A DNA stretch of 506 nt from Escherichia coli. Its GTDB lineage: Bacteria; Pseudomonadota; Gammaproteobacteria; Enterobacterales; Enterobacteriaceae. The notes beneath the pieces are model-generated. The model made no database searches and had not been told where the DNA came from. It saw only the letters and a program-made list of their open reading frames with translations. The stretch is taken from assembly GCF_003334335.1 (NCBI RefSeq), contig NZ_QOWQ01000179.1. One strand, written 5' to 3'. This document shows positions 1 to 506 of the stretch, piece after piece. The translations under genes were made by a program, and so were the position numbers. The stretch's first letter is position 1; every line of letters begins with the position of its first letter.

Positions 1-506
1 CTGAGCTCGGTTTCAAGCGCCAGCATGGCTGCATGCGCCCGGTCTTCCTGGCGCTCACCGGCAGACACCTTCACACCGGACGGCTTTTTCTGCGTCGACT
101 CATAATCCTTTTTTGCCGACGCCATCAGCGTGTTGTAATCCGCCTGCAGGATTTTCCCGTCTTTCAGGGCCTTATTCAGCTCTTCCTGCCGGGCGGTATA
201 TTTCTCCAGTGGCGTCAGCAGGCGCTCATACGCCTTCTGCGCCTCTCCGGTATACTTCAGCTGTGACGACTCACGCTCAGCCCTGTCCCTTGCCGCCAGT
301 TCACCGGCTTTTTCCATATCCGACTGCAGCGTTGCCGCTGCCAGACCCAGACGGGCATTTTCCCGGTCATCCCATGCGCCCTGAAGGTTGGCCCGGAAAG
401 AGGAGGTTTTACCGCGGCGCTGGCTCCGGCTCTGGTACCACTGCCATTTTTTATCCGCCTCATCAAATGCCTTCTGCGCACTGGCGAGCATATCCGCTGA
501 GGATTC
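1..506 (-). CDS. H: Phage tail tape measure (tail length determination) protein, lambda gpH family; internal fragment, truncated at both window edges
   Basis: Seen directly: the minus-strand frame with first complete codon at 506..504 has no stop codon over 168 codons (506..3; bases 2..1 are a partial codon). Translation: ESSADMLASAQKAFDEADKKWQWYQSRSQRRGKTSSFRANLQGAWDDRENARLGLAAATLQSDMEKAGELAARDRAERESSQLKYTGEAQKAYERLLTPLEKYTARQEELNKALKDGKILQADYNTLMASAKKDYESTQKKPSGVKVSAGERQEDRAHAAMLALETEL. The two ORFs in the supplied track are shorter and lie in other frames. Composition is rich in A/E/K/Q/L/R, as expected for a helical tape measure protein, and GC is about 58.7% (297/506 by hand count). From memory, not a search: the stretch LKYTGEAQKAYERLLTPLEKYTARQEELNKALKDGKILQADYNTLMASAKKDYE closely matches the central region of phage lambda gpH, and the upstream WDDRE motif aligns at the same spacing (39 residues) as in lambda. 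The gene symbol H is the lambda name for this family; this is a homolog, not lambda H itself. Confidence 0.9.

Follow-up and report, generated by a model that had tools for sequence, protein, structure and literature searches.

A break in similarity to lambda H in an Escherichia coli tape measure gene probably marks the edge of an old, recombining two-type segment

Introduction

The window, a 506-nucleotide stretch of Escherichia coli DNA, raises the question of why one half of a phage gene fragment should closely resemble lambda H while the other half has diverged from it at most positions. [quoted passage not shown] The length of the lambda tail is set by gpH; after cleavage this protein, now gpH*, occupies the tail tube as a hexamer and appears to form the trans-envelope DNA channel, with its central part unresolved (PMC12617516). 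Among lambdoid phages and prophages, the most frequent mosaics are exchanges smaller than a gene, with a median length of 404-494 bp and in many cases with homology at their flanks (De Paepe et al. 2014, PMC3945230). Here, the break is located, recombination is weighed against constraint, and the origin and distribution of the diverged segment are considered.

Results and discussion

A fragment of a lambda-type tape measure gene

The minus strand of the window (3..506) reads as one uninterrupted 168-codon frame, which corresponds to codons 319-486 in a tail length tape measure gene, H, that is of lambda type and has 857 codons. All 506 nucleotides are identical to a prophage of E. coli 2015C-3121, in which H is intact (857 aa) and the gene that carries the window sequence is annotated as a phage tail tape measure protein. 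The annotated tape measure gene of PhiR5_1 is likewise 100% identical to the window over 504 nt. According to the annotation of both genomes, H stands in the tail cluster between the G/T chaperone genes on one side and M, L, K, I and J, which come after it, on the other.

Profile searches agree with the annotation. The window fragment matches PHROG 24, 'tail length tape measure protein', with E 4e-33. The parent protein, represented by the PhiR12_1 homologue, matches lambda gpH (PDB 8iyk_H) from residues 1-857 to residues 1-853 (E = 0), and contains the Pfam domains TMP_2 (PF06791, residues 54-256, E 4e-69) and Tape_meas_lam_C (PF09718, residues 631-705, E 3e-21). The window falls in the gap between these two domains and aligns to gpH 319-482 in a local protein alignment. 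End-to-end homology, both Pfam domains, the position in the tail cluster and the predicted helical central region identify the window gene, at the level of sequence, as a member of the lambda gpH family on each criterion that could be tested. By homology, the functions of lambda gpH in tail length determination, ejection and the DNA channel would carry over to the window's protein.

Comparison with lambda gpH reveals both likeness and difference. Homology is full-length (857 versus 853 aa) with 78% amino acid identity overall, the two Pfam domains are shared, and so is the gene order Z-U-V-G-T-H-M-L-K-I-J. In contrast, residues 319-397 of the window's protein form an alternative version of the segment, hereafter W, that is 25% identical to lambda's and six residues longer, and two residues are deleted at lambda K455-Q456. 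Elsewhere in H, the background DNA divergence from lambda is ~17-20%. The features of the window are collected in Table 1.

Table 1 Features of the 506-nt window, with positions on the window and the evidence for each.
Feature	Position	Strand	Evidence
H fragment, codons 319-486 of 857	3..506	-	open frame, PHROG 24, 100% matches in PhiR5_1 and the 2015C-3121 prophage
Variable block of two types, here in its window-type (W) version, residues 1-80	267..506	-	identity classes, maximum chi-square breakpoints, pS versus lambda
Left edge of the variable block	~485-515 (H nt ~946-976), at or just past the window end	-	maximum chi-square scan
Right edge of the variable block	265..273	-	maximum chi-square scan and alignment
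WDDRE motif, residues 45-49, in the island W-D-R..A.L.L..A	360..374	-	conserved in both block types
Six extra codons versus lambda/N15-type blocks	375..392	-	MAFFT protein alignments; exact placement alignment-dependent
Conserved half, residues 81-168	3..266	-	86% nt and 84% aa identity to lambda
Most conserved core, residues 100-125, LEKYTARQ.ELNKALK.G.ILQADYN	132..209	-	alignment of 8 sequences and pS
Two-codon deletion versus lambda (lambda KPKQS, window KP--S), between residues 142 and 143	78..83	-	alignments

No Rfam match was obtained on either strand of the window at E <= 1. Two plus-strand open reading frames (26 and 77 aa) and an out-of-frame minus-strand one (74 aa) were rejected as spurious because they are antisense to, or overlap, the well supported H gene.

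Split annotations of H occur among the relatives. In PhiR5_1, H (L002 2047..4619) is annotated as two coding sequences, 2047..4380 and 4380..4619. A frameshift close to the 3' end of the gene is implied, unlike in the intact 857-codon H of the prophage with the identical window (L009 3047..5620). In 1H12 (L012), H is also split, near the 5' end (2046..2279 and 2251..4626). These splits may be sequencing errors or real lesions.

Position and sharpness of the break

Relative to lambda H, the conserved half (266..3) contrasts with positions 506..267, where protein identity is ~25% and synonymous sites are saturated. Counted by residue, 74 of 86 positions are identical to gpH in residues 83-168, with 12 substitutions and the two-residue deletion (84% over 88 columns), compared with 21 of 82 (26%) in residues 1-82. 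With blastn, only window positions 268..15 align to lambda, at 86% identity. A two-breakpoint maximum chi-square analysis of the whole gene against lambda delimits a block at 485..273, with 62% differences inside and 19.8% outside (Fisher 4e-36). The best two-breakpoint solutions for other pairs place the right edge at 267 (lambda versus Kati, 2B8 and PhiR47_2) and 265 (lambda versus 1H12).

The proposed change in divergence inside the gene is thus real, with an edge at ~267-273 that lies within 10 nt of position 260. Residues 1-82 do differ from lambda at most positions. The description of the downstream part as near-identical caught a genuine match, yet overstated it, as 86% DNA identity and a dS of 0.46 indicate.

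The alignment of the diverged half to its lambda counterpart scores 83, compared with 34.7 ± 6.3 for shuffled sequences, none of which (0/500) reached this value. The score is far above chance and argues that the two segments remain homologous. The anchors ML, A, AD, W and W-D-R..A.L.L..A are kept between them, and W45, D47, R48, A51, L53, L55 and A58 are invariant across eight sequences, including N15 and the Citrobacter and Enterobacter relatives. The WDDRE motif was correctly placed in the sequence-only reading, which also held that length and spacing around it are preserved. This is so for the distance from WDDRE to LKYT; the window has six codons more upstream and two fewer downstream. 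The upstream length is not kept because 44 residues separate DIGRP from the W in the window and 38 in lambda. In the MAFFT alignments, the six-residue gap appears in all lambda/N15-type sequences directly before the tryptophan of WDDRE.

An AlphaFold2 model of the 168 residues, based on a shallow alignment and, as a monomer, silent on the oligomer, predicts helices at residues 3-28, 35-96, 99-115, 121-139 and 153-167 with a mean pLDDT of 81. In this monomer model, a short loop at residues 29-34 lies near the six extra residues (aligned at 39-44), and the right edge of the block falls within the predicted continuous helix 35-96.

Recombination and constraint

A jump in synonymous divergence near position 260 had been proposed as a check, and such a jump was found: pS against lambda rises from 0.19-0.37 (~254..39) to 0.70-0.91 (506..255). 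Between the window gene and lambda, the conserved half has a dS of 0.46 and the part of H upstream one of 0.71; the block is saturated (pS 0.78), and dN rises from 0.07 in the conserved half to 0.81 in the block. The abrupt change in divergence therefore includes synonymous sites.

The decisive comparison is one in which the window takes no part, that of lambda with Kati. The two genes differ at 127 of 219 positions (58%) within H nt 976-1194 (window 485..267) and at 46 of 2361 (1.9%) outside it (Fisher 4e-114). Along H, their identity runs at 98-100%, drops to 20-57% in the block and returns to 100%. Across the flanks dS is 0.01-0.10, and 0.01-0.03 directly adjoining the block, which is itself saturated. 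The pattern is the same for 2B8, 1H12 and PhiR47_2 against lambda, with right edges at window positions 265-267. The left edges are found at H nt 946-951 in 2B8 and 1H12 and at 976 in Kati and PhiR47_2; the difference between nt 976 in Kati and nt 946 in 2B8 indicates more than one event.

Without recombination, the break would separate a fast-evolving, weakly constrained ruler spacer upstream from a strongly constrained downstream half. The central tape measure sequence is regarded as working chiefly by length, a view to which deletion studies by Katsura and Hendrix are said to have led. The most conserved core of the central region does sit in the downstream half and is invariant even in N15-type proteins. 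However, synonymous sites reach saturation at the same place as the protein changes, and no rate difference in recently diverged genes yields a dS of 0.01-0.03 beside a saturated block, as seen in lambda and Kati. Within the W class, dN/dS is ~0.10 in the block and ~0.09-0.12 in the flanks, and a block constrained like its flanks is not an unconstrained spacer. The blocks also fall into discrete classes with no continuum. On these comparisons, differing constraint is a very unlikely sole cause, refuted in that form; it survives as a contributor, insofar as the conserved downstream core sharpens the contrast.

In that core (residues 100-125), nearly all positions are invariant in the eight sequences, N15-type proteins included, and pS against lambda is at its lowest (0.19-0.28). 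Crossovers in other prophages map to the same interval, 132..209. The core is a candidate functional site, for example a contact with a chaperone or the tube, or a candidate stretch homogenised by recombination.

We conclude that recombination, rather than constraint alone, accounts for the break. It is important to note that no breakpoint appears at this position when the window gene is compared with H of the 2B8/Kati type by maximum chi-square; the best two-breakpoint blocks lie elsewhere and are weak. The break is therefore a property of the comparison between W-carrying and lambda-type genes, and is not evidence for a recent event in the window's genome. With a probability of roughly 0.9, the junction is the edge of an old alternative segment of ~230 bases that recombination shuffles among E. 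coli prophages.

Block classes and their reassortment

Approximately 13 full H genes, a small set, were looked at in detail. In a group of ten, the flanks form two lineages 13-21% apart, with the window gene and PhiR12_1 in one and all others in the second. The block falls into three discrete classes in the same ten genes. Class W1 comprises the window and PhiR12_1, whose blocks are 97% identical in nucleotide sequence. Class W2 (2B8, Kati, PhiR47_2 and 1H12) is 74-76% identical to W1, and class L (lambda, ev017, Perceval and ev207) shows 41-46% nucleotide identity to either W class.

Block and flank phylogenies are incongruent. The W2 genes are nearer to the lambda group in 300 of 300 bootstraps for each of three flank partitions and in 0 of 300 for the block, where they are nearer to the window gene. 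2B8, 1H12, Kati and PhiR47_2 share with the window the W block type, the six-codon insertion and the right edge, but have flanks that are 94-100% lambda-like. The window gene as a whole is a separate lineage, ~16-21% diverged from these four, with a block divergence of 24-26%. Together with the synonymous jump and the saturation of the block between lambda and Kati, these opposite groupings support the recombinational mosaicism proposed from the sequence.

A chimeric query was used to seek the L block in window-type flanks. In the H gene of E. coli 2015C-3163, nt 1-720 and 1350-2000 are of the window type, and the stretch between them, 720-1350, is lambda-type and includes the L block. The H genes of ExPEC XM and 2014C-3061 are other patchworks, and the switches in such genes sit in the most conserved stretches of H. 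All four combinations of block and flank therefore exist: W in window-type flanks (the window), W in lambda-type flanks (2B8, Kati), L in lambda-type flanks (lambda) and L in window-type flanks (2015C-3163). The flanks, 87-95% identical from one deep lineage to the other and 98-100% among genes of the lambda-flank lineage, could support homologous exchange; flank crossovers are not exactly placeable wherever the two parents do not differ.

Two further short mosaic blocks lie in H outside the window (PhiR5_1 numbering). At nt ~541-630, lambda is 75% identical to the otherwise near-identical Kati and 2B8. At nt ~2334-2480, 2B8 is 98% window-type, compared with 47-65% for lambda and Kati.

Abundance of the two types and damaged copies

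Both types are common. Of 5426 complete E. coli genomes, 1223 (23%) contain the W block, at 1903 places that are mostly 90-99% identical (range 90-100%), and 3008 (55%) contain the L block, at 3805 places that are nearly all at least 95% identical. A tblastn search of 50,697 phage records with the W block returned 61 records, all of them W-type copies, and no lambda-type block at E <= 1e-3, which indicates that the two types are far apart. Phages isolated on E. coli carry intact H genes with W (PhiR12_1, 2B8 and Kati) or with L (lambda). Since intact H genes of plaque-forming phages bear each type, both W and L are functional.

Damaged or rearranged copies were also observed. All 33 of the 33 'Stx2a-converting phage' records (LC7278xx) match the W block as two tblastn pieces. 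In Stx2a_JNE122398, the block carries a 1-nt deletion (L006, ~3093; CGCCGCGGT -> CGCCG-GGG) that ends the frame at L006 3249, and an in-frame TAG follows later (KEAATKR*LSEQ); H in this phage therefore looks like a pseudogene. The H gene of phage 204576 (L007) is also frameshifted.

Two metagenomic or fragmentary proteins depart from the usual architecture. Metagenome contig L019 (755..2566) encodes a 603-residue protein, P0081, whose first ~397 residues are a W2-type tape measure N-terminus. The W2-type part stops exactly at the right block edge (..AESEA), where a C-terminus resembling a tail fibre (Pfam Collar) is joined to it; the next gene, on the opposite strand, is one for tail fibre assembly. 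On this single 3.5-kb contig, P0081 could have come about when a defective prophage lost DNA, or could be a chimera of the assembly. P0085, a tape measure fragment of 503 residues, breaks off midway through the W block (..FRANLQGA), and its sequence resumes from H residue ~175 (GLTFNQARESL..). This arrangement implies an internal tandem duplication of ~200 residues, predicting a longer tail, or a misassembly.

Origin and polarity of the two types

Outgroups provide polarity in part only. Lambda and N15 gp16 are evenly similar in amino acid sequence, with 60% identity in the block, 60% in the following half and 57% over the whole protein, whereas identity between the window and N15 is 29% in the block and 53% beside it. 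N15 gp16 and HK225 resemble the window in homology over the whole length, in the core LEKYTARQ.ELNKALK.G.ILQADYN and in the W..WxDRE anchors; they differ from it in having the short, lambda-type block, as do Citrobacter, Enterobacter and metagenome fragments. A word-indexed protein search with the 168-residue fragment returned almost only short partial proteins, and is informative only in that its non-E. coli fragments are lambda-type. The even lambda-N15 identity, the drop seen with the window and the L-like relatives suggest that lambda's block is typical of the family and that the W block, with its six extra residues, is unusual. Base composition hints weakly at the opposite polarity, as G+C is 52% in the L block (lambda H nt ~976-1176), 60% in the W block and 59% in the whole gene; this signal is ambiguous.

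No outside donor of the W block was found with phmmer among 1.84 billion representative proteins, where the matches belonged to the same tape measure family at the same position. Two long hits to proteins other than tape measure proteins are repetitive and look like chance matches. We infer that W and L first came to differ when a version was imported from a tape measure lineage that is more distant and has not been sampled; alternatively, the difference may reflect fast divergence in place.

Two other origins have almost no probability. The diverged half might have arisen through a frameshift and a compensating frameshift, or as a copy of another part of H, and the 1-nt deletion in the block of Stx2a-phage copies demonstrates that frameshifts occur here. 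Yet W-block protein scores 17-30 against the five other frames of the lambda block DNA, within the range of shuffles, and 83 in frame. The DNA identity of W and L, 41-46%, is at the level of unrelated sequence, and the W block scores 35 against the remainder of its own protein, where the shuffle mean is 40.7. The frame and self-comparison scores rule out frameshift-pair and intragenic-duplication origins. Equally negligible is the notion that a diversity-generating retroelement, or some other form of programmed hypermutation, has the block as its variable target, for which a localised, strongly diverged stretch in a phage tail gene might speak. The alleles are discrete and stable, with W 90-100% identical across 1223 genomes and L at least 95% across 3008; the differences between W and L are not limited to adenine positions and include an 18-nt indel; and no repeat copy of the block is present within the H gene.

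Proposed mechanism

By this account, W and L are two ancient, homologous and saturated versions of one segment of ~220-250 nt (73-79 codons). W is carried by the window, PhiR12, 2B8 and Kati, and L by lambda, ev017 and Perceval, and also by N15, HK225 and other enterobacterial relatives. The segment sits in the central 'ruler' region of H, predicted to be α-helical, and has well conserved DNA on either side. Recombination in these flanks, homologous or homeologous, probably carries the block, and larger pieces of H as well, from one prophage to another in the same cell and to or from infecting phages; the likely enzymes are Red/Rad52-type functions of the phage or RecA of the host. The abrupt jump at the block edge in the comparison of W and L would then arise because recombination in the flanks swaps the whole block. 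Six residues would alter a helical ruler by less than 1 nm, far below one ring of the tail tube, so W and L should give equal tail length.

A possible role for selection

It may be asked whether recombination is only the vehicle of a pattern whose cause is selection. Balancing or diversifying selection could keep W and L common if this stretch met a variable partner while DNA is injected or the tail assembled; the partner might be the G/GT chaperone, a host factor of the inner membrane or periplasm, or a protein of superinfection exclusion or defence. The two types are deeply diverged and both frequent, in 23% and 55% of E. coli genomes; purifying selection acts on each, and each has been reassorted onto both flank lineages. 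Tape measure proteins are named as targets of the exclusion proteins HK97 gp15 and TP-J34 Ltp in work cited in PMC10883804, and gpH* appears to form the trans-envelope DNA channel (PMC12617516). However, no partner is known for gpH residues 319-397. Two old alleles that persist neutrally among prophages, in a population that is large and recombines, would leave the same picture, and in the literature consulted the exclusion-escape determinants known in other phages are not mapped to an equivalent region. Selection of this kind is therefore unlikely as the cause. Slightly less likely again is the specific proposal that the W/L difference at gpH residues ~319-397 is a selected functional polymorphism, in which the two versions of this helix-loop-helix stretch act differently where the ejected channel or the assembling tail meets a variable partner. 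If it were true, recombination would keep W and L circulating on all H backgrounds because of a functional difference.

Relation to known mosaics and significance

The recombining two-type segment resembles the relaxed-recombination mosaics described for lambdoid phages (Martinsohn et al. 2008, PMC2327257; PMC3945230) in that small intragenic segments with flanking homology are shared by temperate phages and E. coli prophages. The described mosaics are recently shared segments that are >90% identical; the H block is the reverse, a short, anciently diverged segment in similar genes. Literature searches returned no paper on this particular H block and nothing specific on the PhiR phages.

In every respect that could be tested, the window feature is an intragenic recombinational mosaic, and as such it is real and ordinary. 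That lambdoid phages are mosaic below the level of the gene is textbook knowledge, and public records already annotate this gene, a tape measure gene of the standard lambda type. The importance of the finding is small beyond careful annotation, and its added value modest: a well delimited two-type cassette of ~230 nt in H, with both forms common, purifying selection on each, and lambda's form the family-typical one. The cassette could serve as a natural marker in studies of prophage recombination, and could be a starting point for inquiry into roles of the central tape measure sequence beyond the setting of length.
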